The notes beneath the pieces are model-generated. The model saw only the letters and a program-made list of their open reading frames with translations, was not told the origin of the DNA and did not search any database. This document shows, in pieces, positions 8,244 to 41,721 of a stretch of 64,000 bases of DNA (within the stretch, counting starts at the first letter, position 1; each line of letters begins with the position of its first letter). The DNA is taken from NCBI GenBank assembly GCA_944359065.1, contig CALVSP010000001.1, positions 4,314-68,313 on the forward strand, written 5' to 3'. Made by a program: the position numbers and the translations under genes. This stretch comes from an uncultured Bacilli bacterium. GTDB lineage: Bacteria > Bacillota_I > Bacilli_A > RF39 > UBA660.

Positions 8244-8271
8244 TGTTATTATTACCTCTCTTATTCTATTG

Positions 8272-8945: not shown

Positions 8946-9146
8946 AAACATTTAACTAGTTACATAACATTTTTACATCATACCTATCTAAGCATTAAAT
9001 TTAAACATAAATAAAAAATGCACATTCTTATAAAACATGCATTTTAAATCAAAATATATGATAACATCAATTATAACGTTTCATTCATTACTATTATTAC
9101 TAAATATCTTTTTATCAATAAATATTATAACTGACTAAAATTAATT

Positions 9147-9509: not shown

Positions 9510-9523
9510 AATTATATCACCAC

Positions 9524-9898
9524 TTATTCAATGTTACTTAAAAAATCGAATTTAACATCATCCAAATAAAATGAATCTGTATCACTTGAAATAGTTTTTA
9601 TGTCATTTTTATCTTCTTCAAGGTACGTCCATTGAATTTTTAAGGTTTTAGTCTCTTTATAAAAATCTACAATACATATTCCTAAGTCTTCTTCACCAAG
9701 TCTTATCACACAAGTAGGCTTTGAAAGTTTGGTATTTAATTCAGGGTCATTTATAATTAATGTATAACCACTAGAACTTTTCCATTTGCTATGATATATA
9801 TTTTTATTTGTTGATTCAGAACTACAACCTGTAATCATTAAAATAGATAATATAAAAGCAATTATAGGAATTACTAATTTCTTTAATTTATCTTGCAT
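9524..9898 (-). CDS. lipoprotein
   Basis: 124 aa with signal peptide and lipobox LMITGC. Confidence 0.55.
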   Translation of the reverse strand: MQDKLKKLVIPIIAFILSILMITGCSSESTNKNIYHSKWKSSSGYTLIINDPELNTKLSKPTCVIRLGEEDLGICIVDFYKETKTLKIQWTYLEEDKNDIKTISSDTDSFYLDDVKFDFLSNIE

Positions 9899-9899
9899 A

Positions 9900-10619: not shown

Positions 10620-10707
10620 ATTAAAACTAACTCCTTCTCAAACTACTTGAAACTTAACTTCGAGACATATTATACCTACAATAAATTTATTTTTAGTTTA
10701 ACTATCA

Positions 10708-10965
10708 TTAAATATACTTTGCCTTAAGTGAACCTGTAAATCTATTAAACTCTAAAGATATTTTATTTATCTTATCCTTATAGACTTTAATTTTTGCTTT
10801 CCTTATACTACATTTGAACACAAGTACACAATCATCTTCCACTCTAAATTCAAAAGAATCACGATGTGAGACCTCACCTATCAATTTGTCATCACAATAG
10901 ATTTGAATTTTTGGATAAACTGCATATTCCCCTGTATATCCATAAACAATAACATTATTTTTCAT
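10708..10965 (-). CDS. small protein paralogous to the N-domain of 9900..10619
   Basis: 85 aa. Both proteins start MKNN. Shared features are IGE, a D.F motif and K.KA.I.V.K..IN.I. Confidence 0.45.
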   Translation of the reverse strand: MKNNVIVYGYTGEYAVYPKIQIYCDDKLIGEVSHRDSFEFRVEDDCVLVFKCSIRKAKIKVYKDKINKISLEFNRFTGSLKAKYI

Positions 10966-11059
10966 AAATCACATCCTATCAAATTTAATGCTACAATAGC
11001 ATCAATCATAAAAATTACTATTTTTTTAATTTGTATTTCATAATATGTCTCTTAATTTA

Positions 11060-12331: not shown

Positions 12332-12405
12332 AATCTACCTCTTAATTCTTCTTCATTATCATTACAAAATAATATGTATCTAATTCTTTAACATAAATTT
12401 ATCTT

Positions 12406-12822
12406 TTATAAACTCATTCTAGCATTTAATAACTTCAAAGATACATCTGAAATATAGAATCTTTGCTTTATTTGGCTAAATGTTTTAAATCCAATTATTA
12501 ATTCAGACAATTCTTTTTTAGTAATTGGTTTAAAAGATTTAATCGTATTCTTGCTTAAAATATAAACACCTAAATTACCATCAATAGTTGGTTTTTTAAA
12601 TCTGATTATATCATTCAGCTTTGCTGAAGCAATAATACTATTTTTCATTTGGAACAATAACAAATCTCCTTTATTCGCTTCCATCCCCTTTCTCCCATAA
12701 TAATACCAGCCTTTTCCTTCGTAAGTCAAATAATCATCAAAAAATTCTTTTTGAATTTGATTAATTGTTTTACCTTCAAATTCACTATTATATATGGTCA
12801 TCGGAATTATTCTAATATTCAC
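12406..12822 (-). CDS. hypothetical protein
   Basis: 138-aa ORF with a clean intergenic context and no recognisable motif. Confidence 0.4.
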   Translation of the reverse strand: MNIRIIPMTIYNSEFEGKTINQIQKEFFDDYLTYEGKGWYYYGRKGMEANKGDLLLFQMKNSIIASAKLNDIIRFKKPTIDGNLGVYILSKNTIKSFKPITKKELSELIIGFKTFSQIKQRFYISDVSLKLLNARMSL

Positions 12823-12921
12823 CCTATCACCTCTAGTATTATTATATCATACTTTCTAGTATTCAAGCAATACCTTTGGGGTATACTAATAAAAACTTTG
12901 TAGTTGATAAAATTATATTAG

Positions 12922-13308
12922 GTGATTAAAATGAGGATAAATGACAAAGAAAACTATGATATTATAAGAAACTCAATCTCAATGACTAATTTAAAAAAGA
13001 TTATAGATAACAAACAAATATCAATGGTAAAATTAGCAATGAATTCTAAAATTTCTGATTCTACAATTAAAGCATACATATCAGGCCAAAAGATTCCAAG
13101 TCTTCCAACTTTGGTTTCTATAGCCGACTATTTAAATTGTAATATAGATTATTTACTTGATAGAACTAATAATCCTATAAAGATAGATGATATTAATTCT
13201 ATAAACAAAAATGAAGAAGTAAATCAATTATTTCAAAATATTATATCTTTACCTAACGAAAAACGAAATCTTGTAATAGGATATGTTCAAGGTCTTCTAA
13301 AACAATAG
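12922..13308 (+). CDS. XRE-family HTH regulator
   Basis: ISMVKLAMNSKISDSTIKAYISGQKIPSLPTLVSIADYLNCNIDYLL is an HTH_XRE motif. The true start may be the second Met (MTNLKK). Confidence 0.65.
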   Translation: MIKMRINDKENYDIIRNSISMTNLKKIIDNKQISMVKLAMNSKISDSTIKAYISGQKIPSLPTLVSIADYLNCNIDYLLDRTNNPIKIDDINSINKNEEVNQLFQNIISLPNEKRNLVIGYVQGLLKQ

Positions 13309-13431
13309 AAGACCTTTTACTATAATAAACATATATTAGATATTTAAGTAATAATTATAATGTAATGTTACTTTTTTTCATAACATTCTATCTTAATAGT
13401 AATCTAACACAATATAAATTTAAAAACAAGT

Positions 13432-13842
13432 TTAATCAAAAAATTTATACCAATTGCTTTGTGTATCAATTATATTAAGTAATGATTTAGTAATATCAAC
13501 GCCAACTATTTTAATTTGGCGATTTTTTCTACTATCATCTCTAAGCCTTAATATCAAATTATTATGATTGCTTTTTATATAACTATATGTTTTAAACATA
13601 TACATATAATTTATTCTGGAATCTGCATTTTTATCGGTAAATGGATTTCCATTGATATCCGTTTTACCATTTAAAAAGCTTTTTATTCTATTAATAGTTG
13701 CTATATCTAATATACCTAGTTTATGGCCTCTTTCAGTTCCATAAACTAGGCCATTATCACAAATGGATATTCTATTATTTGTATTTTTATCTTCAATCTG
13801 AAGAAACCATTTTTTATTATTCATATCATCAATCCTTATCAT
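13432..13842 (-). CDS. hypothetical protein
   Basis: The track ORF starts at TTG 13857. The first ATG gives MIRIDDMNNKKWF at 13842. Confidence 0.4.
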   Translation of the reverse strand: MIRIDDMNNKKWFLQIEDKNTNNRISICDNGLVYGTERGHKLGILDIATINRIKSFLNGKTDINGNPFTDKNADSRINYMYMFKTYSYIKSNHNNLILRLRDDSRKNRQIKIVGVDITKSLLNIIDTQSNWYKFFD

Positions 13843-13880
13843 AAATTGTGACCACAATATTAAACAATTGTGGCCACTTT
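13843..13880. promoter_or_regulatory. pair of operator-like palindromes (aattgtg-ac-cacaatt and caattgtggccac)
   Basis: Perfect inverted repeats sit immediately upstream of the 13432..13842 gene. They share an ATTGTGRC core with the 83-bp repeats. Confidence 0.35.
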
Positions 13881-14237
13881 TTTATTTTATTAATTATAAG
13901 CCACCCACCCATTAGATTGGAGGCTTGTAAAACCATAAATCAAAATTATAAATGTTCGATACTGCTATTATAATAAACAGGGATAGGTTGTTCTTATTAT
14001 AATAGTCTAATAGTTTTAACTTTCTATTAGTTTTTAATAGTTCTCTCTTCTCTTTCTTTTTTTAATGTGATTGTTATTCTTCTTATTAGTAGTAGTGCTA
14101 CTAGTGTTATTGCTATTCTTCCTTTTAATATTACTGTCAGTGTTATTGTGATTAATATTATTAAGATTATTGAACTGGCTTTTGCATGAGGTTTCCACTC
14201 GTATCATGATGCGCGAACTTGCTGTATATTTATATTT

Positions 14238-14552
14238 TTACACTTTTTCTAACATTAATTTATCATTTTCAAATATAGATACTACTTTTAATCTATACTT
14301 ACGTTTTAATATACTACATATTAAATTATCTAACTTCCTTTCATCACATAAATTAAATATGAAATCATCCTTAGACATTCTCTTGATACTATGAAAAGAT
14401 AGATTAATATCATTACCATAATATTTATAGTAAATGACAATGTTATCAGCTACCAAATTAGCATAGTGTTTTATGTAGTTCTTTCGCAAATCGTTTTCAA
14501 TATTTTGCTCTAATTTTGTTAATATATTATCCATTGCTTTCATTCCTCTCAT
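14238..14552 (-). CDS. small hypothetical protein, 3rd of 3 overlapping ORFs downstream of the FtsH-like gene
   Basis: 104 aa. Overlaps the upstream ORF by 26 nt, indicating translational coupling. Confidence 0.4.
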   Translation of the reverse strand: MRGMKAMDNILTKLEQNIENDLRKNYIKHYANLVADNIVIYYKYYGNDINLSFHSIKRMSKDDFIFNLCDERKLDNLICSILKRKYRLKVVSIFENDKLMLEKV

Positions 14553-14814
14553 TTTTAAATTCTAACAAACAATGATAAACATTACATATAAACGAATCAG
14601 GTTTTGAATAATTGTCACAATCATCTAACAAAGATGAAGGAAGTGAATACTTAACTTCCATAAACTTTATAACTTCATCGAACTTAATTGTGTTATTCCA
14701 CAACTTAGATATCATTACAAACAATTCAAATAATGAAAAATTTAATATTATATTTCCTTTTAACCAATGCAACAGTATATCGTTTAATATTTTATTTAAT
14801 CGACTATCCTTCAT
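14527..14814 (-). CDS. small hypothetical protein, 2nd of 3
   Basis: 95 aa. Overlaps neighbours on both sides (11 nt and 26 nt). Confidence 0.4.
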   Translation of the reverse strand: MKDSRLNKILNDILLHWLKGNIILNFSLFELFVMISKLWNNTIKFDEVIKFMEVKYSLPSSLLDDCDNYSKPDSFICNVYHCLLEFKNERNESNG

Positions 14815-15133
14815 CTCTACAAATCCTTTTCTTTAATGGTTTATAACCTATGTTTATCTCGTTTATTCTATTTCTTCTTTTAAAAGCTCTAATCGTAGTC
14901 TTAATGATTAGATTATCATTTTTAAATTTATCATTTAAAGAGAAATATATGTTTGGAACGTATTTTATTGATTTCAAACTTGCTTCATAGTTATCGTTTA
15001 ATAGATCAATAAACATTTTTGGAACGTATTTTATCCAAGTATCCTTACTCATTACTTTTAATATATCTACAACATCTTTAGCCAAAACACATTGAACAAA
15101 TTCGCCTATATCATTTTTATCCTTGTATTTCAT
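14804..15133 (-). CDS. small hypothetical protein, 1st of 3
   Basis: 109 aa. Lies 83 bp downstream of the FtsH-like gene. Confidence 0.4.
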   Translation of the reverse strand: MKYKDKNDIGEFVQCVLAKDVVDILKVMSKDTWIKYVPKMFIDLLNDNYEASLKSIKYVPNIYFSLNDKFKNDNLIIKTTIRAFKRRNRINEINIGYKPLKKRICRDEG

Positions 15134-19597: not shown

Positions 19598-20152
19598 TTA
19601 CGCTTTTTTTCTTCTTTTTTCTTCTTTTTCTAGCATAGTCATAAGTATTTCAGAACCAATAATATATAAAAGTGGTATAAATATTAGGAAAAACATTCCA
19701 AATTTTGTAGCAACTATTTTATATATAAATGATAATATTATACATTTATATATAATTTTGCCATATACTTGACTTTCATAAACTATTGGATCTGGTGCAT
19801 CATTGGCGATACCTTGGGTATGAAAAATATATTTTCCATCTTCATCTTGTTCGATATTAATAACTTCGTGAGTTACAACTTTTCCAGCTAAAGTGCCTTG
19901 CTTACCTAAATAAGAAATAGAATCTCCAATTTCAATTTTAGATGGTTCAATCTCTTTAGCAATTAAAACATCGCCTATTTTATATTTTGGATCCATACTT
20001 CCAGATACAACAGTAAACATTCTAAAACTTAAAAATGATATTTTATTATTACTAAATCTTTGTAAAGCAACTACTAACAAAAATAAAATAATAAATATTG
20101 CAACAAATATATTTAAAATTGTTTTAATTATTTTAAAAGCCTTATTATTCAT
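19598..20152 (-). CDS. sipW: signal peptidase I, SipW/S26B (ER/archaeal) type
   Basis: 184 aa. N-terminal TM, VVSGSMDPKY (Ser nucleophile), VVTHEVI (His), TQGIANDAPD (counterpart of GDNNxxxD), C-terminal TM. Confidence 0.8.
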   Translation of the reverse strand: MNNKAFKIIKTILNIFVAIFIILFLLVVALQRFSNNKISFLSFRMFTVVSGSMDPKYKIGDVLIAKEIEPSKIEIGDSISYLGKQGTLAGKVVTHEVINIEQDEDGKYIFHTQGIANDAPDPIVYESQVYGKIIYKCIILSFIYKIVATKFGMFFLIFIPLLYIIGSEILMTMLEKEEKRRKKA

Positions 20153-20164: not shown

Positions 20165-21289
20165 CTACAAGTATTCTTGTGCCCTTTCTAAGTATTCTTC
20201 CATTGCATTTTTAAACTTTTTCTTAACATCATCCATACCAACTAATCTTTCACTTTTATCTTTTTTTATTTCTTTAGCTATCATATTTAATAATTCTTCA
20301 TCAGTTATTTCAATACCTGCACTTAATAATAAATCAACTATTCTTCTTATTTCTTCTCTTAACAATAAAACTGCGTTTTTAGCCATTTTTTTCTTTTGTT
20401 CTCTTTTAGAAGGAACTAAAGAATCTAAAACTAAATAATCTATTAAGAATGAGTGATCCAAAAATCCTTTTAATACATCATTTCCATTATCAGTATCATT
20501 TTCTTTTTTATTTTCATCATCCTCAAATTTTAATAAATATTCCCATAGTTTAACAGCAATTCTAAAGTTAGGATTCTTTAAAATGATATTAGTTTTCTTA
20601 ATTGGTGGCTTTATGAATGACACATGTGCTTTATCTAAAGCTTTATACATTTCACTTCTTTGCCAACTAGAAATATATTCTTTAATTCTTTTAATTCTAG
20701 CTTTGATTTTTTTAATTTCATCTTTAATTTTTTTGTCAACCTTTGCAGTTGGTAAAGTTTCTGATGTAACTTTTAATTCAATATCTAATTTTTCAAAATC
20801 AGTTACTGTTTTAGCAGAATACTCTAATACTTTATCATCACTTAATTCAAAATTATTAAGTAATTCCTCTTTTTCTAAAACAAATTTTAATAAAGAATCT
20901 ATTAGAGTATAGAGAAACCTATTTTCATATATATTATAGGTTTCTTCATTTCTAACATCCAATATTTTTTTAGGTTCAACACTTTTAGTTTTCTTATCAA
21001 CTTTATTAATATATTCAGTATGTTTACTCAAATCTTTAATACTTGCTACAGTAATTTTTTTTGATTTTTCAATTTTAACAGTATTTTCTTCTCTAATAAG
21101 TGCGATTTTAGGTTGTCTTACAATAATATCAATATATGGACAAGCATCTTCTATTACATCAATCCAATCAAAAGATACTAAATTACCTTCATAATCAGAT
21201 TTAAAAAACATCTCAGAGCCTAATTTTTTTAAAAATATATCAGTTCTATCTTTTACTTCTTTTTCAACTTCACATTTGAAATTGTCCAT
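20165..21289 (-). CDS. hypothetical cytoplasmic protein, apparently partnered with the McrB-like AAA+ gene (13 bp from the neighbours on each side)
   Basis: 374-aa ORF, K/E-rich, with no confidently recognisable nuclease motif. Confidence 0.4.
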   Translation of the reverse strand: MDNFKCEVEKEVKDRTDIFLKKLGSEMFFKSDYEGNLVSFDWIDVIEDACPYIDIIVRQPKIALIREENTVKIEKSKKITVASIKDLSKHTEYINKVDKKTKSVEPKKILDVRNEETYNIYENRFLYTLIDSLLKFVLEKEELLNNFELSDDKVLEYSAKTVTDFEKLDIELKVTSETLPTAKVDKKIKDEIKKIKARIKRIKEYISSWQRSEMYKALDKAHVSFIKPPIKKTNIILKNPNFRIAVKLWEYLLKFEDDENKKENDTDNGNDVLKGFLDHSFLIDYLVLDSLVPSKREQKKKMAKNAVLLLREEIRRIVDLLLSAGIEITDEELLNMIAKEIKKDKSERLVGMDDVKKKFKNAMEEYLERAQEYL

Positions 21290-21306
21290 ATAATATCAAC
21301 CCCTAA

Positions 21307-22836
21307 CTATATGCTTTTCTTAAGATTTTGTAAATATGCAATACATTCTTTCATTACATCTTTACCAAATTTTTTATTCAAATAAGAAATAAATGGATCA
21401 ATTTCATCTCTAATTAAAGCAACACTTAATTGATCAAATTTTCTTAATATTTTTTTAGCAATAAAGTAATCAATAGCTTCGATTTCTTTACCACCACATG
21501 CTACATAAACAGGAACAAATACACCTAATTGTTTCATAATACGATTACCAAAAGCAATTCTAAAATGTTCAATAACGTAATCATCTATTTCTCCAACATA
21601 ATTTAATCCTTTATCAGATAATGGATATTTTTCAATTGCATCAGCGAATAAACTGTCTAAATAACTTGAATTTATTTTTACTACATCTTGTTCACGACAT
21701 TTAAATGGATCTACTTTTGTATTAATATCAATAGGCATTGCTCTATCATATACTTTATCAGTAACCATAAATGTTGAATCATCATTATTAATAGTACCAA
21801 TATACCAAATATTACCTGGTAATTTAATTTTTCCTTTAATTAATTTTTTAGGATCATCTGGCCAAGCACTAGGAACTAAATCTACTAACCATTCATCACG
21901 ACTAGGCATTTCAAGAATTGATAATAAATCCGCAAAATAATATTCAACACGTGCTAAATTCATTTCATCTAGAATAATTGTATGAACATCATCATCAAAT
22001 GAAGCAGCATATATTTCACCTAAAGCCTTAGTTTCATTAAACTTTTTAGTAAATTCATTGAAATATCCTAAAAAATCTGATTTATCTCTCCAAGATGGTT
22101 CAACAGAAGATACACAAGCATCCATACCCATAAATTTTCCCCAAGCATATGCTAAGGAAGTTTTACCAGTACCAGAGATACCTTGTAAAATAATTAACTT
22201 ACCACAAGCTAAGCCACCAAAGAAAGGCCTTAAAATTGTAAAATCATAATATAAATGTAATTGACTAGCAGCAAAACATCTAAAATCATCAATTAATTGC
22301 GCTAAAGTTGTATCGTTTTCATATTTTTTAATTTTATAACCTTCAAATTGTTCATCAATAGCCACCAATTTAGGAAATCTAATTCCTTTAATAACAGCAT
22401 CTTCTTCTTCCGGTTTTTCTTCTTCTTTATTTTCTTCAGTTTCTTCCTCAGGATTAATTCCTAATTGAGAAACTTTCATAGCCATTAATTCTTCTCTTTC
22501 TTTCATTAACTTTCTAACTTGATCATTTAAATTACCAATTTCAGTTAATAATTCATCTTTACTTAAATTATTATTTAATTTTCTTATAATTTTTTTAACT
22601 AATAAGAATATTAATAATGCTATTAATAAAACAATTATTATTAAACAAACAACACACATAACAACAAATATTTTTTCATTGCCATTAAAATTATCTTTAT
22701 AACTTTCAATTATTTTAGCGTAATCACCAAAACTAAACATCTGTTTAATACCATTAATAAATCCTTTAAAAGCATTAAACAATCCATCAAAAAAGATAGA
22801 TATAAATTCGTAAAAAAATCTCAAAAATGTATTCAT
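21307..22836 (-). CDS. membrane-anchored AAA+ ATPase of the AAA_5 / McrB-like class
   Basis: 509 aa. TM helix (FVVMCVVCLIIIVLLIALLIFLL), coiled coil, acidic linker. Walker A GISGTGKTS. Walker B/sensor HTIILDEMNLARVEYYFADLLSILE (compare McrB hhIDEINRa...fGEl..LLE). Also IGTINNDDSTF...YDRA. Confidence 0.6.
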   Translation of the reverse strand: MNTFLRFFYEFISIFFDGLFNAFKGFINGIKQMFSFGDYAKIIESYKDNFNGNEKIFVVMCVVCLIIIVLLIALLIFLLVKKIIRKLNNNLSKDELLTEIGNLNDQVRKLMKEREELMAMKVSQLGINPEEETEENKEEEKPEEEDAVIKGIRFPKLVAIDEQFEGYKIKKYENDTTLAQLIDDFRCFAASQLHLYYDFTILRPFFGGLACGKLIILQGISGTGKTSLAYAWGKFMGMDACVSSVEPSWRDKSDFLGYFNEFTKKFNETKALGEIYAASFDDDVHTIILDEMNLARVEYYFADLLSILEMPSRDEWLVDLVPSAWPDDPKKLIKGKIKLPGNIWYIGTINNDDSTFMVTDKVYDRAMPIDINTKVDPFKCREQDVVKINSSYLDSLFADAIEKYPLSDKGLNYVGEIDDYVIEHFRIAFGNRIMKQLGVFVPVYVACGGKEIEAIDYFIAKKILRKFDQLSVALIRDEIDPFISYLNKKFGKDVMKECIAYLQNLKKSI

Positions 22837-22839: not shown

Positions 22840-24882
22840 CTACTCTCCCCAATAACTTCCTATTTTACTTGCTATATCATCATAAGCAATTTTATTGTGT
22901 AATTCTTCTTTAATTGATGATAAAACATCAATCGATTCAAACATTTTCCCTTTTACTCTTTTATCGATAAATATGTATTCCATTGCTTCAACAATTCCTT
23001 GATCTTTTGCTTTAACTGCTGAAGTTTGTAAATCAACGGCAAATCTATATCCATCTTTAATTAATGATTTAATAACCTTTTTATTCTTTGACAATTCTTC
23101 ATATTGAGATAAAACAATAATATTATTTTTAGCATATTCATCACCAAATAAATTAAATATTTTATCTAACTTATTAGATTTAGTATATAAACTTTCTGGT
23201 ATATAGAATATATATTTTTTATTAAAATCAGCATTCAACATATCTTTAACAACTTGTACCAATAATAATGTTAATAAAACTTCTATTTTGTCTTCAGCAA
23301 CAATGCCATCATAATATGTTTTATCTACAATATAATCGCTATATACTTTACTAAAATTGATATTATGATTTAGTTCAACTGCGTAAGTATTTTTTATTGA
23401 TAAACTATTATAATTTAATTCAAATAAACTTGTTTCTAATTTTTCAATCGATTCTTTAACAATAGATTTATAAGTTTTTTGAATTTTTAATATACTACTA
23501 ATCATAGTATTCATTGTTTTTGGATCAACTTCAGTTCCAATTAATTTAACCATCTTATTTTTATAAGTTTGTTTTTTTATCTTAGTATCATCAATAACTA
23601 AATATGTGTGTTCTAAATGCATAATTAAAGTAAATATATTAGTGTATTTTTTTACCTTTTCACTATATTTATTATCAGTACCTTTATATACTTTAATCAT
23701 TTTTTCTGCTGCTTCTTTTAATGCATTTTCAATTCTAGTATTCATATTACGGCCATTATATTCAACATTGACATCTCCGCAATAATTATAATATTTACCA
23801 TCAATATAAACACTCATAAAGTTTTCTCTAATCGTTGCTTCATTAGTTTTTAAAGTTTCATCATTATTTAAAACTTCAATAATTTCCTTTAATTCTTCTT
23901 CTTTCATAAACATAGTTTTTTCGATTATATTTTTGAATTTTTTCTTTTTATTTTGTAACATTTCTAATTTTAATTCAACTTCAGCAACTTTAGGTTCTTC
24001 TTCTTTTTCTACAACGACTGGTTGTTCTTCTTCAATTTCAATTTTTTTAGCATAAGCATTTTCGATTTCATCTTTATCAACTTGAATCATTCTAAAATAC
24101 ATAGTTTTATCTAAATCTTCTGCTTCTAAAGGTTTTAAATCAGTAATTGTTTCATCAATTTTTTCATCTTTTACTTCTTCAACCTTAGTAACTTTTACTT
24201 CTTCATCTTCTTCTTTTATATTATTTTGAATTTTTTCTGGTTCTGATTTTTCTTTAATATATTCATCATTAACTATTTTTTTCTTATCCTTTTTAATTAA
24301 TTTAATAATATTTTTTATAAATATTTTTATTTTTTTAACTACATTTGCCATAAATACATCAAATTTCTTCATATCTTTTTCCTTCTTATTCTTCTTAATT
24401 GTTAATGTTACTAAATAAACAGTAATAATAATTGCAACTAAAACATAAGGATTAAATATTGTTTTTTTAAATATACCAAAAGCAGGTAATACTTTAACAA
24501 CTTTTCCAACTATTTGTTCTTGTGTAATTGGATCATCCTTAGCATCATTAGCATCACCTTTAGTTACATAAGTACCTTGGTATGCTTCAATAACTCTATG
24601 AGTTATAAATTCACCATCTTGCTTAAATGTAATAATATCATCTAATTTTATATTTTTAGAATACTTAACAACAATCCAATCACCAGGTTCAACTGCTTCT
24701 CCCATACTTCCTGTCTGCACTTCAAATACAGAGTAACCAAAAAAACTAGAGTAATCATTACCTAATAATTTAACTTGGATATTGTTGTATATAGAAATTA
24801 ATAATACTATTCCAAAAATAAAAATTAATATATTTAAACCAATATTGGCAACTTTTTCTAAAATTTTACCTTTATTTACCAT
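22840..24882 (-). CDS. fusion protein: N-terminal S26B/SipW-type signal peptidase domain plus a long K/E-rich coiled-coil and a C-terminal domain of about 380 aa of unknown function
   Basis: TM helix, QTGSMGEAVEPGDWIVV (Ser), FITHRVIEAY (His), TKGDANDAKDD, then a second TM (YVLVAIIITVYLVTLTI). Cytoplasmic extension of about 500 aa follows. Confidence 0.6.
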   Translation of the reverse strand: MVNKGKILEKVANIGLNILIFIFGIVLLISIYNNIQVKLLGNDYSSFFGYSVFEVQTGSMGEAVEPGDWIVVKYSKNIKLDDIITFKQDGEFITHRVIEAYQGTYVTKGDANDAKDDPITQEQIVGKVVKVLPAFGIFKKTIFNPYVLVAIIITVYLVTLTIKKNKKEKDMKKFDVFMANVVKKIKIFIKNIIKLIKKDKKKIVNDEYIKEKSEPEKIQNNIKEEDEEVKVTKVEEVKDEKIDETITDLKPLEAEDLDKTMYFRMIQVDKDEIENAYAKKIEIEEEQPVVVEKEEEPKVAEVELKLEMLQNKKKKFKNIIEKTMFMKEEELKEIIEVLNNDETLKTNEATIRENFMSVYIDGKYYNYCGDVNVEYNGRNMNTRIENALKEAAEKMIKVYKGTDNKYSEKVKKYTNIFTLIMHLEHTYLVIDDTKIKKQTYKNKMVKLIGTEVDPKTMNTMISSILKIQKTYKSIVKESIEKLETSLFELNYNSLSIKNTYAVELNHNINFSKVYSDYIVDKTYYDGIVAEDKIEVLLTLLLVQVVKDMLNADFNKKYIFYIPESLYTKSNKLDKIFNLFGDEYAKNNIIVLSQYEELSKNKKVIKSLIKDGYRFAVDLQTSAVKAKDQGIVEAMEYIFIDKRVKGKMFESIDVLSSIKEELHNKIAYDDIASKIGSYWGE

Positions 24883-24978
24883 ACTATATCAACCCTATCT
24901 TTGACTCTTTTCTTACTATATATAATTTTACCATATTCGACATTTTTTTACAATACAAAAAATCAAAAAAAAGAATGT

Positions 24979-26589
24979 TTAATCATTCTCTTTAATTTCT
25001 TTAGCAACAATTTTTTCAACTTGCACAATAAACCAAATCTTTTCAATTGTTGTTTCACTTTTTTCTATTTTATTTACTCTTAATATTAATAATATCTTAT
25101 TAAGTAAATTTTTAAGATTATCTTCATTTAAATCATCTTCACTAATATTAATACTATTTAATCGATATTTATTACTAATTGTTTTAGCAATATTATTACT
25201 AGAAAAAATTGGTACTCCAGTAATAATAATATTAGTTGGATTCATTGCAAACAAATCAAAATTATCGCTATATTTAATAATTTCATCATAATCAGTTATA
25301 TTATAAACTTTTTGAATTGTTAATTTTTTAAAATAATCAAAACTATAATATAAATTCAAAACATCAGAAATAGTTAATGTATCATTTAATATCATCATTA
25401 CTTTATCTTTAAAATATTCAATATCATAAGTTTTATATAACTCATATAATTCTTTAGCTTTTAAAACTGATTGTAATTTTAATTGCTTTAAAGCACTATC
25501 AGATCTAAACTCAAATAAACCTGGTTTACCACTAAAGATTTTCTTATTTAATTTTTCTAATTCATTTTCTTTAGTTTCTATTTGATCAATAATAGTTTTT
25601 AAACCTTTATACTCTTTTTTATCAGTAGTCAATAATTTTTCATATTCATCTTTAAAATACTTAAACATTGGATAAAACTCTAAATAATTTTGATATTCTA
25701 AAATATTTAATTTTAATTTTTCTAAAGCAGGCGCTACTTTATCAACATCAGTAACTTCTGGAATTAAAGAATCAAATGCTGTTTTGCGTCCTTTACTATC
25801 ACTTAAATATTGTTCGATATCTAATTCTTTAGTTTTAGCCATAGCTATTATGTCACTAATAGTTTCTTTACTTGCCATATTTAAATCAATATAAGCATCT
25901 TGTAATTTTTCTAAACAATGAGCATAATCTCTAATTTTATTTTTCTCCATTACTTCTTTTTGTAATGTTAAAATATAATTATTAAATTTACGACTATTTT
26001 TCTTAATTAACTTTCTAAAATTTAATTCTATATGTTGAATAAGTTCAGGATTTACCCAATAAATTTGTTCAAATATTTCTGATACTTTATCATAACTACT
26101 TAATCTTCTATTTCTTACTTCTAAAAAAGCAGTCATATATTCATGGACATAACAAGTATAATTAAAATCATCACTTTCTAAATGAATACCTGCTTGTTCA
26201 AACTTATCTAATAAACCATTTATTATTTCATTTAAAGATTTAAAATTAAATGTATCATAATTATTAATTTGATATAGTAAATCATCAAAACACATTTTTT
26301 CGACATAGGTATTAGTTGGATTTAAAAGAAATTTAACATTTTCTAAAGTTTCTAATTTTTCTGTTAATTGATCTAAATCAGTAGATTCTTTAACTTCAAA
26401 ACTTTTAGCCTTAGCAATTAAATAATTTCTAGTGCTAGTTTTATATTCTTCATATCTTTCAATTATATCATCAATTGTTTCATTAAATTTCTTTTTATTT
26501 GTTTTAGTTTTAGTAGGCATAGTGGAAATTAATGTTTTTTTTGCTTCAATATCTTTATTTATAAATTCTAAAAAATTATTCATCTTCAT
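24979..26589 (-). CDS. hypothetical all-alpha cytoplasmic protein
   Basis: 536 aa with no TM. Sits inside the same tightly spaced minus-strand gene string. Confidence 0.4.
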   Translation of the reverse strand: MKMNNFLEFINKDIEAKKTLISTMPTKTKTNKKKFNETIDDIIERYEEYKTSTRNYLIAKAKSFEVKESTDLDQLTEKLETLENVKFLLNPTNTYVEKMCFDDLLYQINNYDTFNFKSLNEIINGLLDKFEQAGIHLESDDFNYTCYVHEYMTAFLEVRNRRLSSYDKVSEIFEQIYWVNPELIQHIELNFRKLIKKNSRKFNNYILTLQKEVMEKNKIRDYAHCLEKLQDAYIDLNMASKETISDIIAMAKTKELDIEQYLSDSKGRKTAFDSLIPEVTDVDKVAPALEKLKLNILEYQNYLEFYPMFKYFKDEYEKLLTTDKKEYKGLKTIIDQIETKENELEKLNKKIFSGKPGLFEFRSDSALKQLKLQSVLKAKELYELYKTYDIEYFKDKVMMILNDTLTISDVLNLYYSFDYFKKLTIQKVYNITDYDEIIKYSDNFDLFAMNPTNIIITGVPIFSSNNIAKTISNKYRLNSINISEDDLNEDNLKNLLNKILLILRVNKIEKSETTIEKIWFIVQVEKIVAKEIKEND

Positions 26590-26736
26590 TTTCCTCTTCT
26601 AACTCTATTTTACTTTCAACTAAAAATTGCGAAAAATCTGTAATATTTTGATAAACTTCAATCAATTCTTTTAAAGTTAGTGTCGATAAATCGAAATCTA
26701 CTTTTTCTTCCCTTTTCATCTTATCACCTTTTTCCC

Positions 26737-27783: not shown

Positions 27784-27844
27784 TTTTCACCACCTAATTA
27801 ATAAAGGAAGAGTAATTAACCAAATTACTCTTCTTTATTATCAA

Positions 27845-29146
27845 TTATTCACCATTTGTTGGAGTAATATCTGTACTTGGTCCATCGTAACCTGGAATAT
27901 CAGATTCAATATATCTTTCTTTAGTGAATCCAAAATTAACTGTAATTTTCTTTCCTAATGAAGCGAAATCATAATTATCGATATCTTGTCCTTCAATCCA
28001 AATGTAAACTCTAACTTTTGTAATACTATTTGGAGCTAAAGTCATAAACTGTGGACGATCTTTACCAGCAACATTTTTCATTGTATCAGTAAAGTATGGG
28101 AATTCAACTAAGTTATATGTACTTCTATTTCCTGCAATGTAAGTTTCATAATCTACAGTATTTTTTGTATAAGTATTGTAAGCTAATCCATCATAAATAT
28201 TTACATTATCAGCAATTTCAATATCATTACTAATTGCATATGTTGGATAAGCTGTACCATTTTCTACTGCAGTACATTTTGAACCAGCATTATATGAATC
28301 TGGATCATTAACATCGTCACCATCAGTAGAAGCTTTTCTTGTTAAACAAGATTTTTGATACCAATTAATAGCATTTTGTACGTGTTTAGTATCGTTTGGT
28401 TCCCAAATTTGAGCATCTCTACAAATTCCAGTTACTTGAACTTGGCCATCAGCAGCAGGTACATCAGCGCAAGTGATTTTTGTAATATTGTCAACTGATT
28501 CAGTATTAGCTTCAACACGCCCGATTTGCGCGAAAGCAACTCTTACTGAATTTTCAATACCTGCTTTTTTTTCTCCACCATTTGCAGAAACTTTAACTTC
28601 TGAATTAGTAGTTAAATAAATTGCTTCTTCATTTAATGGATTATTATCAGTATAATAAGCATTTCCTGATAAGTTTTTAATGAATAAGTCAAATGCTACA
28701 TATCCATTTTCTTCTTCATATTCAACACCACCAGCATTTAAAGTAGTATGGTTATCAACTTGTTTAGATAATAATCTATAACCACCAGTAACAGCAGTTA
28801 AACTTCCTTTTTCATATAATTTCATTCTTGATGAAGCTTTATGCATATCACCAACAGATGACATTGGAATTAATCCTTCGCCAGGTTGATCTAACCATTG
28901 GTTAGCATTTCCTTCATAAGGATCAGCATTTCTTGCATCTAATGTATATTTCCAGTTTTCTCCATCCATAGATAAGAATAAACCTTCTGTTGTTGCTATG
29001 TTAACACTAAATTCTGCAACATTAACAGTTTTCATACCAATAAACCATGCATAAGTTGAAACTGATAATAAGATTGCACATAAAGAACAAATAGCAACTA
29101 AATCTCTAATTCTTTTACTTTTTTTACTATTATGTTTTTTTGCCAT
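27845..29146 (-). CDS. secreted protein, SipW-cognate signal (STYAWFIGMKTVNV); paralogue of 37550..38866
   Basis: 433 aa. Ends ...RVYIWIEGQDIDNYDFASLGKKITVNFGFTKERY. Confidence 0.55.
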   Translation of the reverse strand: MAKKHNSKKSKRIRDLVAICSLCAILLSVSTYAWFIGMKTVNVAEFSVNIATTEGLFLSMDGENWKYTLDARNADPYEGNANQWLDQPGEGLIPMSSVGDMHKASSRMKLYEKGSLTAVTGGYRLLSKQVDNHTTLNAGGVEYEEENGYVAFDLFIKNLSGNAYYTDNNPLNEEAIYLTTNSEVKVSANGGEKKAGIENSVRVAFAQIGRVEANTESVDNITKITCADVPAADGQVQVTGICRDAQIWEPNDTKHVQNAINWYQKSCLTRKASTDGDDVNDPDSYNAGSKCTAVENGTAYPTYAISNDIEIADNVNIYDGLAYNTYTKNTVDYETYIAGNRSTYNLVEFPYFTDTMKNVAGKDRPQFMTLAPNSITKVRVYIWIEGQDIDNYDFASLGKKITVNFGFTKERYIESDIPGYDGPSTDITPTNGE

Positions 29147-31174: not shown

Positions 31175-31239
31175 AACTCTACCCCTTCATATTACCCTAT
31201 AAACTAGGGTCACTATGATATTCTTTACAATACAATATA

Positions 31240-31267
31240 ATTATAACATACATATTTTTTTTGTCAA
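31240..31267 (-). promoter_or_regulatory. consensus sigma-A promoter (TTGACA-16-TATAAT on the minus strand) driving cassette 1
   Basis: The minus strand reads ttgaca aaaaaaatatgtatgt tataat. ATTGTCGA direct repeats lie further upstream at 31273..31290. Duplicated at 41031..41058. Confidence 0.6.
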
Positions 31268-31477
31268 TATAATATGTCGATAATTGTCGAATTTAATTTT
31301 ACTTTGTTTTTCTTTATTTTACAATAGTTTTTTGTCAATCATTTACACTATTTCGTTATTTTTGTTAAATATTTTACACATATTGACATATATAAAATCA
31401 CATTTTACACTTTTATGTTGATTTTTTACACATATATATGTATAATAAAGATGTAAAAGAAGAAAGAAGGGTTTTAA

Positions 31478-32155: not shown

Positions 32156-32689
32156 TTATTCTTCTACATCTACTTCATCACCATATTTAATTTCAACTAT
32201 TAATGCATATAATTCATAAATAAAGATTAAGAAACAAGGTACTAATACGATAAATAAGAAGCCCCATTGTGATTCGATAATTCCTAACACTCCTCCAATA
32301 TCATTATATACTTTAGTAGGTCTACCAATTAAATATTTGATTGAATATGTTTCACCATTTTCTAATGTAAGATAATCATCCATAACTTCTCCAACTTTAC
32401 CAATATTGATATCAGCAGTTTTAGACATCTTATCGACTTTATAAACGAATACTTCTTCACCTTTTTGTAAATTTTCTGGTGCAGCTTCTTCAACTAAAAC
32501 TAAATCACCTTTTTGATATTCTTCATGACTTACCTTATCTTTTAAAATTACTAATGAAGTTTCACCAAATACTGTTACACGATAATCATTGAAATTCAAA
32601 AGTAAAATTGTCATAAATAATGCAAAGGTAAAATAAACAATTCCTAATGTTACTAATAATACTTTCTTAATTTTTTTTAAAACTTTCAT
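32156..32689 (-). CDS. SipW-like topology protein (N- and C-terminal TM helices flanking a beta-rich domain) lacking recognisable catalytic Ser and His; candidate inactive signal-peptidase paralogue
   Basis: 177 aa. TM1 VLLVTLGIVYFTFALFMTILLL. The domain contains KGDLVLV and EVFVYKV. TM2 FLFIVLVPCFLIFIYELYALIV. No GSM or THRV motif. Confidence 0.35.
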   Translation of the reverse strand: MKVLKKIKKVLLVTLGIVYFTFALFMTILLLNFNDYRVTVFGETSLVILKDKVSHEEYQKGDLVLVEEAAPENLQKGEEVFVYKVDKMSKTADINIGKVGEVMDDYLTLENGETYSIKYLIGRPTKVYNDIGGVLGIIESQWGFLFIVLVPCFLIFIYELYALIVEIKYGDEVDVEE

Positions 32690-34094: not shown

Positions 34095-37000
34095 CTATCT
34101 AACAATAAATTTCTTTTCGATTGTTCCTATTTTAGTTGTACCATCGTATAATTCAATTACAAATTTGTAACCACCTAACATATTTTTAAGTTCTAATTTA
34201 TTAGGTAATTCATAAATATTATCAGTTATTTTATTTAACTGTGTAGTAGTGTAATTATTTAAATCAACTAGTGAATAATCTTGATTATAGGCTGATAAAA
34301 CTTGTTTTTTATATAATGAAATTCTAACAATTGGATTAGTAAAATTACCAGTTTTAATTACATCAAAATTAATTATATTGTCTGTTATAACATTATTAAA
34401 TGATACATCAAATCCATAATCAATTGTAACGTTGTTAGTTACGGTTATAGGAATAGTTATTTCATTACTATATGTATTAGCATATTTTCCATCATAAGAT
34501 GCAAGTGCTTTTATTTTAAAATAATAAGTTCCTGTTTCTAATTTACTATTATCAACTGAAGTAGTTATTTCTAAATTACCAATATCAGGTATTCTAACTA
34601 TACCATCATTACTTGGTGAATATTCTTTTCCATTTACTTTAAATGTTAAATTTTTTAAGTATTCCTTATTTACTATATTTCCATTTTTATCAACTAATCT
34701 AATATTTAATCCCATTATTTTATCTTCATATGTTGTATCATTTATTTGATTACCATTTATAAAATCATATACTAAATTACTTGTAATATCAATTGTATTA
34801 ATAGAATCACTATTATAAATAATTGTGTCGCTATAATTAGAACTAATATTTATACTAGCACTACTTTCATAAATATTAAATGGTTTTAAAGTAGTTGTTA
34901 AAGTTTTAATTACACTATCTTGATTATTTAATTCCATAGTTATTTTAATATCTTCAACATTAGTTATATCAGTATTCTTAAAATCTAAAACAATAGTAAA
35001 ATTTTCATTTATTTGATTTGTGTAATTATCTTCATTAAATAAATTATCACTACCTACTTCTTTAAATAAAGTTAAATTATAAATTGTATCTTGTTTATCA
35101 ACTGTATATGTATATACTTTATTTTGATTATTATCAATTAAAGTTATTTTTGTATTAAGTGGTAAAGAAGTATTAGATACAATACTATGTATTTTTCCTT
35201 CATTATAATCATAACTTGATTGATAACTTACATTTAAAGTTATAGATGATTTATTTGTTATATAATTTGTAGTAAAGTTATTATTTCTACCAGCATTTAA
35301 ACTATCAACACTATAGCCATCAAATATTATATATTCACTATTAACATAAGTAACATAATCAGCATTATCAATTACTTTAACATATAAAATATAAGTACCT
35401 TTATTATCAATTGTTATTTTATCATTATAAGTATTCCAACTAATACTTTCTAATTTATCTTCAGTTATTATTTCATTAGATAAATAATATTCCACACTTT
35501 TAATACCAGATAAATTATCAATAGCAGTTATTGTTAAATCGGTATTTTCATTTATATAATTTTTAATAGTTGGATTATTTAATTTATTCCAAGTTTTATC
35601 ATTCATATTAATAGTAACTTCAGAACCAGATAAATCTACTATAATTAAATCAGAGTTTAAATAATAGATATTATCATTATTATCAACTACTTTAGCATAT
35701 ATAACATATTTACCTTCATTATTTAATTCAGCTATATTTTCATAATTAATAAAAGTTAAATTTTGTATTTCTTCTTTTGTTAATTCTTTATCACTAATAT
35801 AATAACTAACTTCTTTAAATGGTCTCAATGGATCAATTTGTTCAATACTAAATGCTGTTGCTTTATTAAATTTAATTGAATTTAATTCATATCCTAAATT
35901 ATTCCATGAATATGTTCCAACATGAATATTAGCAATTGGATTATTTATATCATCAGTAGCTAAAATAGGAAAACTTCCTTCTTCATAAACCCAAACATTT
36001 TCTACATTATTAGCTAAATCTGTACTGTCAATAAATTCATTAAATTGCAAATTATTGATAACAAAATCTTTATCTTTTAAATTATTAACATCTGTTAATG
36101 TAACACTACCAAATATACTTCCTTCATTTGTTACATTACCATCAGTATAATAAGAGTTTTTAAAACTAACAACACTACTTATAATAGAATTTACTAAATA
36201 TGTTGTCTCGGTAGCAAAAGAATTATTAATAGTTAAATTACCATTTGTAACATTATTAATTAAGTGAGTAACATTACCTGTACTATAAATTTTGTTTAGT
36301 GTTCCTTTACCATGAAGTTTATTAATTAATCCAGATGTTTTATCACCTGATAATGTTCCATTATTATATGATTTATTAATTGTAATATCATTAGTATATC
36401 CTACTAAACCAACACTATTTTTACCTATAACATTAGATTTATTAATAACATTACTTAAAGTAATTTTATCTGCCTTAGCAACTATTCCACTACTAATACC
36501 ATAATTATAAGTTACATCATAAGTTAAATTATCTAAAGTTATACTAGTATCTATAACTATTTTACTAATATTTCCCAAGTCAAGACTAAAATCACCAGTT
36601 ACTTGATTATTATTAATTTTTATTTTATTTTCACCAATATTACCTTTAATTGTAACATTAGTTATATCACCTTTTATATAAGGAATCATTACATTAGAAA
36701 AATTAGAAATTGTAGGAACATTAAATGTTTCTGTTTTAGATAATTCTTCATTAGTACCAACAACATAACCATTATATAAAACATTAGTTATATTAGAATT
36801 AGTAGCACTAGAAGCAATTCCAGCAGTAATATTACCACCATAAACCATTGAATTTTCAACATATAAATTACTTACATTGCCACTTAAATTAGTAAATAAA
36901 CCTACTTCTTCATTTTCACTAGAAATATATAAACCATATATTCTAAAATAATTACCATCTAAATTACCTTTAAAATTATTTAAAGATTCAAATAAATTGA

Positions 37001-37424
37001 TATTTTTTATTTTAGTACCAGTTTTATCTACATTATCATATATTTCATTAGTATTCTCTTTTACATAAAATGTCGTATTATTTAATTTATATTTAATACC
37101 TTCTTCATCATAACTAAAAATGCCATCATTTAAAACAATATCCTTATTTAATTCAAAATATGTATCAGCATAATCAGTAGTCTCTAACATTTGCGCAAAA
37201 TAAGCCAATTCGTTACCATTAGAAATAATATAGGGGTCTTCTAAAGTACCACTACCACTTCGATAACTAGTAGCGACATTTCCATCCCAAACATCAATTT
37301 CTTTAATAGTATTCCTGTTTTTATAGCGCGCTAAACTAGGTATCATAATAGAACAAACTAATATTAAACATAAAATTAAAATTAAATAATTCTGCTTAGG
37401 TATTCTTTTCAACAAATCTTTCAT
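34095..37424 (-). CDS. large (1109 aa) secreted repeat protein, probably a beta-helix / GLUG-like N-domain followed by Ig-like repeats, with SipW-cognate-like signal (PSLARYKNRN)
   Basis: After the signal comes GSGTLEDPYIISNGNELAYFAQML, which is typical of Firmicute beta-helix surface proteins. Highly N/T/S-rich repetitive sequence. Own promoter with extended -10 (tgttataat) at about 37450. Confidence 0.5.
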   Translation of the reverse strand: MKDLLKRIPKQNYLILILCLILVCSIMIPSLARYKNRNTIKEIDVWDGNVATSYRSGSGTLEDPYIISNGNELAYFAQMLETTDYADTYFELNKDIVLNDGIFSYDEEGIKYKLNNTTFYVKENTNEIYDNVDKTGTKIKNINLFESLNNFKGNLDGNYFRIYGLYISSENEEVGLFTNLSGNVSNLYVENSMVYGGNITAGIASSATNSNITNVLYNGYVVGTNEELSKTETFNVPTISNFSNVMIPYIKGDITNVTIKGNIGENKIKINNNQVTGDFSLDLGNISKIVIDTSITLDNLTYDVTYNYGISSGIVAKADKITLSNVINKSNVIGKNSVGLVGYTNDITINKSYNNGTLSGDKTSGLINKLHGKGTLNKIYSTGNVTHLINNVTNGNLTINNSFATETTYLVNSIISSVVSFKNSYYTDGNVTNEGSIFGSVTLTDVNNLKDKDFVINNLQFNEFIDSTDLANNVENVWVYEEGSFPILATDDINNPIANIHVGTYSWNNLGYELNSIKFNKATAFSIEQIDPLRPFKEVSYYISDKELTKEEIQNLTFINYENIAELNNEGKYVIYAKVVDNNDNIYYLNSDLIIVDLSGSEVTINMNDKTWNKLNNPTIKNYINENTDLTITAIDNLSGIKSVEYYLSNEIITEDKLESISWNTYNDKITIDNKGTYILYVKVIDNADYVTYVNSEYIIFDGYSVDSLNAGRNNNFTTNYITNKSSITLNVSYQSSYDYNEGKIHSIVSNTSLPLNTKITLIDNNQNKVYTYTVDKQDTIYNLTLFKEVGSDNLFNEDNYTNQINENFTIVLDFKNTDITNVEDIKITMELNNQDSVIKTLTTTLKPFNIYESSASINISSNYSDTIIYNSDSINTIDITSNLVYDFINGNQINDTTYEDKIMGLNIRLVDKNGNIVNKEYLKNLTFKVNGKEYSPSNDGIVRIPDIGNLEITTSVDNSKLETGTYYFKIKALASYDGKYANTYSNEITIPITVTNNVTIDYGFDVSFNNVITDNIINFDVIKTGNFTNPIVRISLYKKQVLSAYNQDYSLVDLNNYTTTQLNKITDNIYELPNKLELKNMLGGYKFVIELYDGTTKIGTIEKKFIVR

Positions 37425-37510
37425 AAATATCTTCCTTTACCACTTATTTATTCTTTAACTTTTCTACCTTATATCAATTATAACATAATTCGACATCTTT
37501 TGCACTACAT

Positions 37511-37545
37511 TTCAAAAAAAATATCACACAAATTGTGTGATATTT
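37511..37545 (-). terminator. rho-independent terminator ending the cassette-2 transcript
   Basis: Perfect inverted repeat atatcacacaa/ttgtgtgatat, followed on the minus strand by an 8-T run. Confidence 0.55.
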
Positions 37546-37549
37546 TAAA

Positions 37550-40977: not shown

Positions 40978-41030
40978 CTTTTACCTACACCCCTTTTTGT
41001 ATACTACGATATCCTTTACAATACAATATA

Positions 41031-41058
41031 ATTATAACATACCTACTTTTTTTGTCAA
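41031..41058 (-). promoter_or_regulatory. duplicate consensus promoter (TTGACA-16-TATAAT) driving cassette 2
   Basis: The sequence 41014..41060 is near-identical to 31223..31268. ATTGTCGA x2 upstream at 41064..41082. Confidence 0.6.
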
Positions 41059-41142
41059 TATTAATTGTCGACTATTGTCGAAAATTGTGTGATTTTTGTG
41101 AAAATATCATGTCAAATTTGTTATAATATAATTGGTGATAAA

Positions 41143-41721
41143 ATGAAATTTATATATGCTATTTTTATTAGTCTTTTATTTATTGTTAATGTAAATGCTC
41201 AAAAATTAGAAGTTACTTTAGATAGTTGTGTCGATGGTGATACTGCTTGGTTTATTTTAAATAATGAAAGAATTAAAACAAGATTTTTAGCTATCGATAC
41301 GCCTGAATCTACTAATAAAAAAGAACCATATGGTAAAGAGGCTAGTGATTTTACTTGTAATATTTTAAGTAATGCTAGTAAGATCGAAATTGAATATGAT
41401 CCTAATAGTGACAAATTAGATAAATATGACCGCCATTTAGTTTGGATATTTGTCGATGATAATTTATTACAAGACTTAATTATTAAAAATGGTTTAGGTG
41501 AAGTTGCTTATTTATATGGTGATTACCAATATACATATATTTTAGAAGCTAGTCAATTGATTGCTAAAACGAGTAAAATTGGTATTTGGAGTGAAACAAA
41601 TGATTACTTATATGTTATAATAGGTATTGCTATTTTTATTGTAATTTTAATAGTTTGTATTTTTAATAAAAAAATTAGAAAAAAAGTATTTAAAAAAATA
41701 TTAAAAAAAATAGGAGTTTAA
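41143..41721 (+). CDS. secreted thermonuclease (staphylococcal nuclease / SNase fold) with C-terminal membrane anchor
   Basis: Signal peptide MKFIYAIFISLLFIVNVNAQ. DGDTAWF...RFLAIDTPE...YGKEAS...DRHLVWIFVDD are SNase motifs. C-terminal TM IIGIAIFIVILIVCIF. The track start at 41065 was replaced by the ATG at 41143, which is preceded by a ggtga RBS. Confidence 0.7.
   Translation: MKFIYAIFISLLFIVNVNAQKLEVTLDSCVDGDTAWFILNNERIKTRFLAIDTPESTNKKEPYGKEASDFTCNILSNASKIEIEYDPNSDKLDKYDRHLVWIFVDDNLLQDLIIKNGLGEVAYLYGDYQYTYILEASQLIAKTSKIGIWSETNDYLYVIIGIAIFIVILIVCIFNKKIRKKVFKKILKKIGV

Follow-up and report, generated by a model that had tools for sequence, protein, structure and literature searches.

In the 64-kb stretch of DNA analysed here, which we refer to as the window, two sets of related genes (cassettes 1 and 2) are each headed by a nearly identical promoter with a pair of short direct repeats just upstream of it. 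The question that this locus raises is whether those repeats are a regulatory site, which protein would bind there and with what effect, and what the genes that follow encode.

The initial annotation had described near-identical TTGACA-16-TATAAT promoters on the minus strand, and our analysis confirmed both at the positions given in Table 1. Each of them has the sigma-A consensus features in full, namely TTGACA, a spacer within 16-18 nt, TATAAT and a TG at -15/-14. Perfect (12/12) TTGACA-16-TGnTATAAT promoters on the minus strand between 24 and 43 kb number only two, one per cassette, and a search of the whole window for exact TTGACA-N16-18-TATAAT returned both cassette promoters and no others, with a chance expectation of 0.26. 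The 45-nt core running from TTGACA to TAAAG differs at 2 positions between cassettes 1 and 2, and the 78-nt promoter block is 87% identical. Strong expression from the two promoters, proposed in the initial annotation, is a prediction, as are the transcript 5' ends.

Just upstream of each -35 lie two TCGACA boxes in 10-bp phasing, which on the plus strand read as the repeat pair TGTCGATAATTGTCGA in cassette 1 (31275..31290) and TGTCGACTATTGTCGA in cassette 2 (41066..41081). Exact TGTCGA-N4-TGTCGA is found at the two cassette promoters and nowhere else in the whole window. Direct ATTGTCGA repeats, which had been reported upstream of each promoter, are indeed present, but the proximal repeat of cassette 1 is ATGTCGA and not ATTGTCGA. 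On the plus strand at 41065..41143, the boxes of cassette 2 are overlapped by the listed TTG start of an SNase gene. On other contigs this protein (192 aa) is called with MKFIY as its start, and a start at that point would place the cassette 2 boxes between two divergent promoters. Separately, the divergent intergenic region between A1 and a 203-aa gene (31304..31431, minus strand) contains six GTAAA(A) repeats in one orientation, spaced 20-31 bp apart. TGTAAA is enriched 5-13-fold upstream of related promoters, the palindrome GTAAAATTTTAC occurs in some relatives, and these repeats may be the site of a second regulator.

Table 1. Positions of the promoter elements, genes and associated features of the two cassettes and their locus within the window.
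Feature	Position	Strand	Remarks
Cassette 1 core promoter	31240..31267	-	TTGACA 31267..31262; 16-nt spacer with TG 31248..31247; TATAAT 31245..31240
Cassette 1 proximal box ATCGACA (6/7)	31275..31281	-	10 bp from distal box; TCGACA core begins 13 nt before -35
Cassette 1 distal box TTCGACA	31285..31291	-	plus strand TGTCGAA, a perfect 0A-box core; at about -58..-52
Cassette 1 start-of-transcript block GTATTGTAAAGAATATCA	31216..31233	-	predicted +1 is G 31233; -10-like TATTGT at +2..+7 (31232..31227)
Cassette 1 5'UTR hairpin	31187..31218	-	-12.5 kcal/mol, z -2.5; ends 4 nt before RBS
A1, 231 aa	30479..31174	-	N-terminal membrane helix and beta-sandwich domain (model); no Pfam family
B1, 414 aa	29215..30459	-	N-terminal hydrophobic segment ending STYAWF; C-terminal WIEGQD motif
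C1, 433 aa	27845..29146	-	paralogue of B1, 58% identity
D1, 348 aa	26737..27783	-	distant paralogue of B and C (33-37%); no cassette 2 counterpart
47-aa small gene (MKREEKVDFDLSTLTLKELIEVYQNITDFSQFLVESKIELEEENEDE)	26576..26719	-	conserved; overlaps start of 536-aa gene; missing from ORF list
536-aa protein (E), no known family	24979..26589	-	last of conserved A-B-C-D-E unit
Cassette 2 core promoter	41031..41058	-	TTGACA-16-TGnTATAAT
Cassette 2 proximal box GTCGACA (6/7)	41066..41072	-	10 bp from distal box
Cassette 2 distal box TTCGACA	41076..41082	-	perfect 0A-box core on plus strand
Cassette 2 start-of-transcript block GTATTGTAAAGGATATCG	41007..41024	-	predicted +1 at 41024
A2, 230 aa	40285..40977	-	57% identity to A1
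B2, 472 aa	38877..40295	-	67% identity to B1; 11-nt overlap with end of A2
C2, 438 aa	37550..38866	-	70% identity to C1
Intrinsic terminator closing cassette 2	37518..37546	-	13-bp stem, then U run
TGTCGAA, forward, in promoter spacer	37489..37495	-	6 nt before extended -10; operon of 1109-aa gene (34095..37424)
TGTCGAA, forward, in promoter spacer	24936..24942	-	5 nt before TAAAAT; 680-aa peptidase-fusion gene (22840..24882)
SipW/archaeal-type signal peptidase I	19598..20152	-	TIGR02228, 78.9 bits (cut-off 51.85)

The two cassettes had been described as tandem, gene-for-gene paralogues of 55-65% identity. They do run in the same direction with collinear A-B-C genes, but they are not adjacent, being separated by approximately 6.4 kb that hold a divergent gene and a four-gene operon, and the amino-acid identities of the A, B and C pairs (Table 1) are slightly higher than claimed, with DNA identities of 69, 76 and 81%, respectively. 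Proteins B, C and D are in addition mutually paralogous at 33-59% identity. Hairpins of -16 kcal/mol occur on the minus strand between B1 and C1 (29147..29214, z -3.6) and between C1 and D1 (27784..27845, z -4.1), and could set the ratios of the subunits, acting either as partial terminators or by stabilising the mRNA; the gap between B2 and C2 in cassette 2 is only 10 nt.

Across homologous loci in 19 genome assemblies and on 80 metagenome contigs, the operon order A-B-C-D followed by the 536-aa gene is conserved in many genera, and the 47-aa gene was found by tblastn directly upstream of the 536-aa homologue in approximately 50 loci, including ones with rearranged gene orders. Cassette 1 corresponds to the ancestral A-B-C-D-small-E operon, and cassette 2 is an extra copy of its first three genes that is either older or faster-evolving. 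The initial annotation had pointed to a segmental duplication. The genes are collinear as a simple recent one would leave them, but such a history does not fit because the copies are not closest relatives (in a neighbour-joining tree A2 falls outside the clade formed by A1 and the A genes of other species), because synonymous divergence between the cassettes is not uniform but falls along the operon (dS: A 1.19, B 0.77, C 0.42), and because the promoter block is nevertheless 87% identical. The cassette 1 promoter block is equally close to that of cassette 2 and to that of a species with an 87% identical A protein, and 14 of the 16 spacer bases are common to both cassette promoters, while species with A proteins that are ~60-66% identical share at most 73% of the promoter block and at most 62% of the spacer. 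The two promoters are therefore closer than cross-species constraint keeps them, which points to gene conversion or to very uneven coding divergence, and the cassette 2 promoter was probably homogenised with that of cassette 1 by gene conversion.

This likeness between the two promoters also bears on whether the repeats mean anything, as they could be chance sequences or -35-like decoys without a regulatory role, carried along in a promoter that resembles its partner simply as a consequence of duplication or gene conversion. TCGACA is a single base away from TTGACA, and the closeness of the two copies, spacer positions included, exceeds what constraint demands. Anchored at the -10 hexamer, the regions upstream of A genes yielded a set of 71 distinct sequences, most with TTGAC[AT], a 16-17 nt spacer and (TG)nTATAAT. 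Among the 51 non-redundant long-leader promoters (class 1), TTGAC is present at the -35 in 51 of 51 and the -10 elements are near-consensus. The 40 nt before the -35 of these promoters hold 32 occurrences of exact TCGACA, a density of 15.7 per kb against a background of 0.13, and none in the opposite orientation; its offsets from the -35 are mainly -13 and -23, which is the same 10-bp phasing. Exact TCGACA is retained in 29 of the 51, and the box consensus across related promoters is TTCGACAAA. An unbiased count of 6-mers placed CGACAA, TCGACA and TTCGAC on top, at 130-150-fold enrichment, and over 694 kb of loci the 7-mer is about eight times as dense in non-coding as in coding sequence, with most of the non-coding copies at the promoters of this operon family.

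The element is also found in other settings. Where A and B lie apart (class 2 genomes), it is the B genes that the full module precedes; the module therefore tracks B-type genes and often occurs in more than one copy per genome. Of 68 promoters, 8 have a forward TGTC[GA] within the spacer (0.57 expected); six of these eight lack an exact upstream box, so that the two placements look interchangeable. In one locus (L018:9440..9480) a tandem TGTCGGT-TAT-TGTCGAA directly precedes the promoter of a B-type gene, and its orientation is the reverse of that seen at all class-1 A promoters. Within the window, TGTCGAA occurs seven times against 2.95 expected, and four of the seven copies are in promoters of the one locus. 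A literature search with the extended motif string returned only primer sequences.

Taken together, these comparisons indicate that the repeats are a conserved cis-element rather than chance, and they largely refute the decoy explanation, which we regard as very improbable: the box offsets are fixed in dozens of diverged promoters with spacers that otherwise show no relationship, and the boxes are more than 100-fold enriched and also occur at non-homologous promoters of the locus. The proposal that the repeats are a regulator-type site is hence borne out by the retention of their position, phase and orientation in many related genomes. The further proposal that the site is dedicated to the two cassettes does not survive, as the 7-mer is also present at two further promoters of the locus (Table 1) and at homologous promoters across genera; the module is old, widespread in uncultured gut Bacilli and more general than first supposed.

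The conserved region extends beyond the -10. At 7 nt after the -10, about where a transcript would be expected to begin, 51 of the 68 promoters have a purine (G in 40, A in 11); in 49-51 of the 68, TATTAT, TATTGT or TATATT comes directly behind it, and TATnnT starts at a distance of exactly 8 nt from the -10. Positions +4 (T) and +8 (A), neither of which was used for selection, are invariant in 49 of 49 class-1 sequences. The consensus of this start-of-transcript block is RTATTRTARARRATATCA, in which T+14, A+15 and T+16 are common and +17 is C. From upstream to downstream, the module consists of (i) two TGTCGAA-core boxes in 10-bp phasing, (ii) an extended -10 sigma-A consensus promoter and (iii) a fixed start block, R-TATTRTA-RARRATATCA, whose first hexamer is -10-like. 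A sigma-dependent pause element has as its consensus a -10-like hexamer in the first transcribed bases and then T+14 N Y+16 G+17 (PMC9191641). On its sequence, the start block could be such a pause element, or equally a repressor operator or a 5' mRNA signal. It was also compared with a CcpA cre site, which it fits at 12 of 14 positions, but this candidate was rejected since the central CG is missed and the TG is not conserved.

A structural RNA role for the leader is not supported. RNAalifold on 34 leaders gave 0 conserved pairs, single-sequence folds of the leaders have a mean z of -0.58, pairing between ATATCA and TGATAT is seen in some lineages only, and the 5'UTR hairpin of cassette 1 (Table 1) is lost in cassette 2 and not universally conserved. 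An Rfam search of the whole window and the promoter region returned three tRNAs only. GGYGGTG in short leaders, considered as an ops element, was rejected, as it lies at Shine-Dalgarno distance from the ATG.

A candidate binder of the conserved site is Spo0A, the sporulation master regulator. The published core of its 0A box is TGTCGAA in A/T flanks, which the Spo0A proteins of Bacillus and of Clostridioides recognise in the same way (PMC3485338). A pair of 0A boxes with a 3-bp gap, lying directly upstream of a strong sigma-A phage promoter and overlapping it, gives a Spo0A footprint and repression (PMC2731898). Each cassette has one perfect TGTCGAA core with A/T flanks and a partner matching at 6 of 7 positions, and in both cassettes the two boxes are similarly placed and are separated by the 3-bp gap that gives the 10-bp phasing. 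The lineage belongs to the uncultured gut Bacilli, or 'Tenericutes', known from metagenome-assembled genomes, with 25% G+C, and the window has peptidoglycan genes (MurD, Ddl and PBP). For the uncultured orders RF39, RFN20 and ML615J-28 of gut Bacilli, published gene content predicts that walled members mostly keep spo0A and sporulation genes (PMC10868615). A tblastn search with B. subtilis Spo0A found no Spo0A gene in the window or in 99 loci, and one match, in locus L005, was rejected as a generic receiver domain only. A regulator gene accompanying the operon was likewise looked for and not found, none being conserved next to the operon, whose upstream neighbours vary between species. This lack of an accompanying regulator suits a global regulator and, together with a core that is the 0A box of the global regulator Spo0A, argues against a dedicated site. 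We infer that a phosphorylated Spo0A dimer, or a regulator of the same DNA specificity, would bind the tandem boxes.

Direct repeats in 10-11 bp phasing beside a -35 are typical of OmpR-family regulators. The 10-bp-phased boxes beside the -35 fit that pattern, so the main alternative to Spo0A is an unrelated response regulator, for example of OmpR/PhoB/WalR type, or else a global factor for TGTCGA direct repeats, with the 0A-box match being coincidental. In class-1 promoters the TGT/ACAAA part of the boxes is better conserved than the CG, which is what Spo0A contacts, as such a factor would allow, and the presence of spo0A in this genome is a prediction from literature at the level of orders. 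The consensus sites are TGTWAH-N5 for WalR and TTAACA for PhoP, with ~11-bp phasing, and the boxes do not fit them, having CG at positions 4-5 and a period of 10 bp. Nor are two-component genes conserved beside the operon, and the full TGTCGAA with A/T flanks and a 3-bp gap is the published Spo0A site (PMC3485338, PMC2731898). We consider a different regulator unlikely, and put Spo0A itself as the binder of the tandem boxes at roughly an even chance.

The most likely action of the bound protein would be repression, on positional evidence. The consensus -35 and -10 elements of the 51 class-1 promoters need no activator, a box inside the spacer, as found in some relatives, can only hinder RNA polymerase, the upstream tandem boxes of L018 face the other way, and boxes lie within the spacers of two further promoters in the locus. 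A sequence in the spacer promoters, TGTCGAAT, was considered as a sigma-H -10 and rejected, there being no AGGA-type -35 at the right distance. According to this model, a very strong constitutive promoter would be shut off at commitment to sporulation or in stationary phase, and as two further promoters hold the box in their spacers, the whole fibre locus (see below) would be shut off together.

The opposite reading is that Spo0A~P is an activator in the manner of spoIIG and spoIIE, turning the fibre genes on in stationary phase or at the onset of sporulation, with a factor bound to the +1..+18 block keeping them silent before then. The tandem boxes, centred near -45 and -55, have one fixed orientation upstream in 51 promoters, and the site as a whole (-58..-42) ends 7 nt before the -35, a position that would suit an activator equally well and that roughly resembles the one bound by Spo0A at spoIIG. 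The strongly conserved block after the -10 could be the operator of the silencing factor, and the TasA-type matrix genes of Bacillus are induced downstream of Spo0A. Against this, the consensus -35, -10 and TG leave nothing for an activator to supply, activation from a box in the spacer is implausible and most promoters with such a box have none upstream, and the reversed boxes of L018 and the spacer boxes at the two other promoters of the locus point the same way. We consider activation rather unlikely, though somewhat less so than a binder other than Spo0A, and favour repression in what follows.

The products of the genes gave few matches by sequence. Homologues number at least 2,199 for B and 775 for A, all of them unnamed. 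Proteins A-D have no Pfam or NCBIfam match, even at E values of 1-10, most of their neighbours are likewise without one, and profile searches against PDB sequences found no relatives of A-D. Structure models of A1 and B1 are beta-rich; in the PDB, the A1 model matches archaeal bundling pili best (E 2.8e-4), the TasA fibre ranks lower (E 9.5e-3) and TM-scores are only ~0.3, and Foldseek returned no significant structural match for the B1 model. Proteins B, C and D share an N-terminal hydrophobic segment ending in STYAWF, similar N-termini are found in four neighbouring proteins, and this segment is possibly a SipW-type signal. A 178-aa neighbour resembles the N-terminus of TasA in a pairwise comparison. 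Membership of the TasA/camelysin (Peptidase_M73) family was rejected on the Pfam, NCBIfam and PDB profile searches, while the SipW-type peptidase expected of a TasA/SipW operon is encoded in the same locus (Table 1). On the models, A-D are predicted to be a family of secreted or membrane-anchored beta-sandwich proteins lacking annotation, and as they are encoded beside a SipW-type signal peptidase, they are probably TasA-like surface fibre subunits. The locus is best read, though with weak support, as encoding a SipW-dependent, TasA-like surface fibre.

Additionally, the neighbourhood of the cassettes has several features of its own. Three genes of the S24/S26 signal-peptidase-like type are present in the locus on the minus strand (19598..20152, 22840..24882 and 32156..32689), the second encoding a protein of 680 aa in which a long domain without known family follows an N-terminal peptidase domain to which it is fused, and the third being a weak S24/S26-like copy that is possibly inactive. 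A membrane-anchored McrB-like AAA protein (20165..22836, minus strand) matches the PADLOC defence candidate PDC-M26A (E 2.5e-36) and is adjoined by a DUF2357 partner; as this pair stands beside the fibre operon in several genera, in varied arrangements, it may be part of the fibre system and not a phage defence. Positions 1..15000 of the window contain resolvase, PcfJ-like, PcfK-like and DnaB-like genes and many small ORFs, and look like an integrated mobile element.

As a whole, the explanation that we prefer is a three-part module in which Spo0A-type binding, probably repressive, controls genes for a secreted TasA-like fibre, and we regard this combination as evenly poised between right and wrong. 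A more far-reaching proposal, which we consider improbable, makes the module a promoter-proximal control device instead of a simple operator: sigma-A would pause at TATnnT (+2..+7), and the protein on the TGTCGAA boxes, which are placed upstream of or within the core promoter as a phage Q-binding element is, would act on the paused polymerase, deciding whether it runs through the hairpins of the operon. The genes would then build an undescribed surface fibre that depends on SipW and is widespread among uncultured, sortase-poor Bacilli of the gut. We know of no documentation of sigma-A pausing of this kind for this lineage. Published gene-content work has found some of these lineages to be without sortases.

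If the boxes are Spo0A sites, the master regulator of sporulation would be tied directly to a large gene family without annotation. Members of the A/B family come from uncultured, genome-reduced Bacilli in human, Hadza and ruminant gut samples, and have neither a Pfam family nor a structure. The module would furthermore offer a concrete cis-element with which to probe the Spo0A programme in these Bacilli, which has so far been predicted from gene content only, and the locus is a candidate for a new type of secreted fibre or surface structure. The strictly placed -10-like element after the start is a separate lead, towards sigma-dependent pausing beyond E. coli and its phages.

These findings extend two known kinds of system, Spo0A-type operators and SipW/TasA-like operons. 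The spoIIG and spoIIE promoters of B. subtilis are Spo0A-dependent and have defective spacing or a poor -35, whereas the promoters here match the consensus perfectly, have a spacer of 16 nt and carry a TG extension. Common to both are 0A boxes beside or overlapping the -35 of a sigma-A promoter (cited in PMC12090719). The early promoter A2c of the Bacillus phages phi29 and Nf likewise has two TGTCGAA-type boxes with a 3-bp gap directly upstream of, and reaching into, a strong sigma-A promoter, in the arrangement expected for a Spo0A dimer, and the outcome there is repression (PMC2731898). In contrast to A2c, the promoters here are chromosomal, belong to secreted-protein operons of an uncultured gut lineage and are predicted to be bound, and the module adds a conserved start-of-transcript block that has not been described for A2c. 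That block resembles the pause element of lambda PR' in having TATnnT at a fixed distance from the true -10 and then T+14 N Y+16; it differs in having C at +17, where the published consensus has G, and pausing here is predicted from sequence alone (PMC9191641).

With regard to the gene products, the locus departs from tapA-sipW-tasA of B. subtilis and sipW-bsaA of C. perfringens in that its proteins have no detectable homology to TasA/Peptidase_M73, its subunits are much larger (350-470 aa), and it has extra conserved partners, namely the 536-aa protein, the 47-aa protein and the membrane AAA protein with its DUF2357 partner. Control of tapA-sipW-tasA in B. subtilis runs through SinR and AbrB, whereas control here would be by direct boxes. 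What the three have in common is a SipW-type peptidase encoded with several paralogous secreted beta-sandwich proteins (those here being predicted) and a link, putative in our case, to the Spo0A developmental network (PMC7395162).
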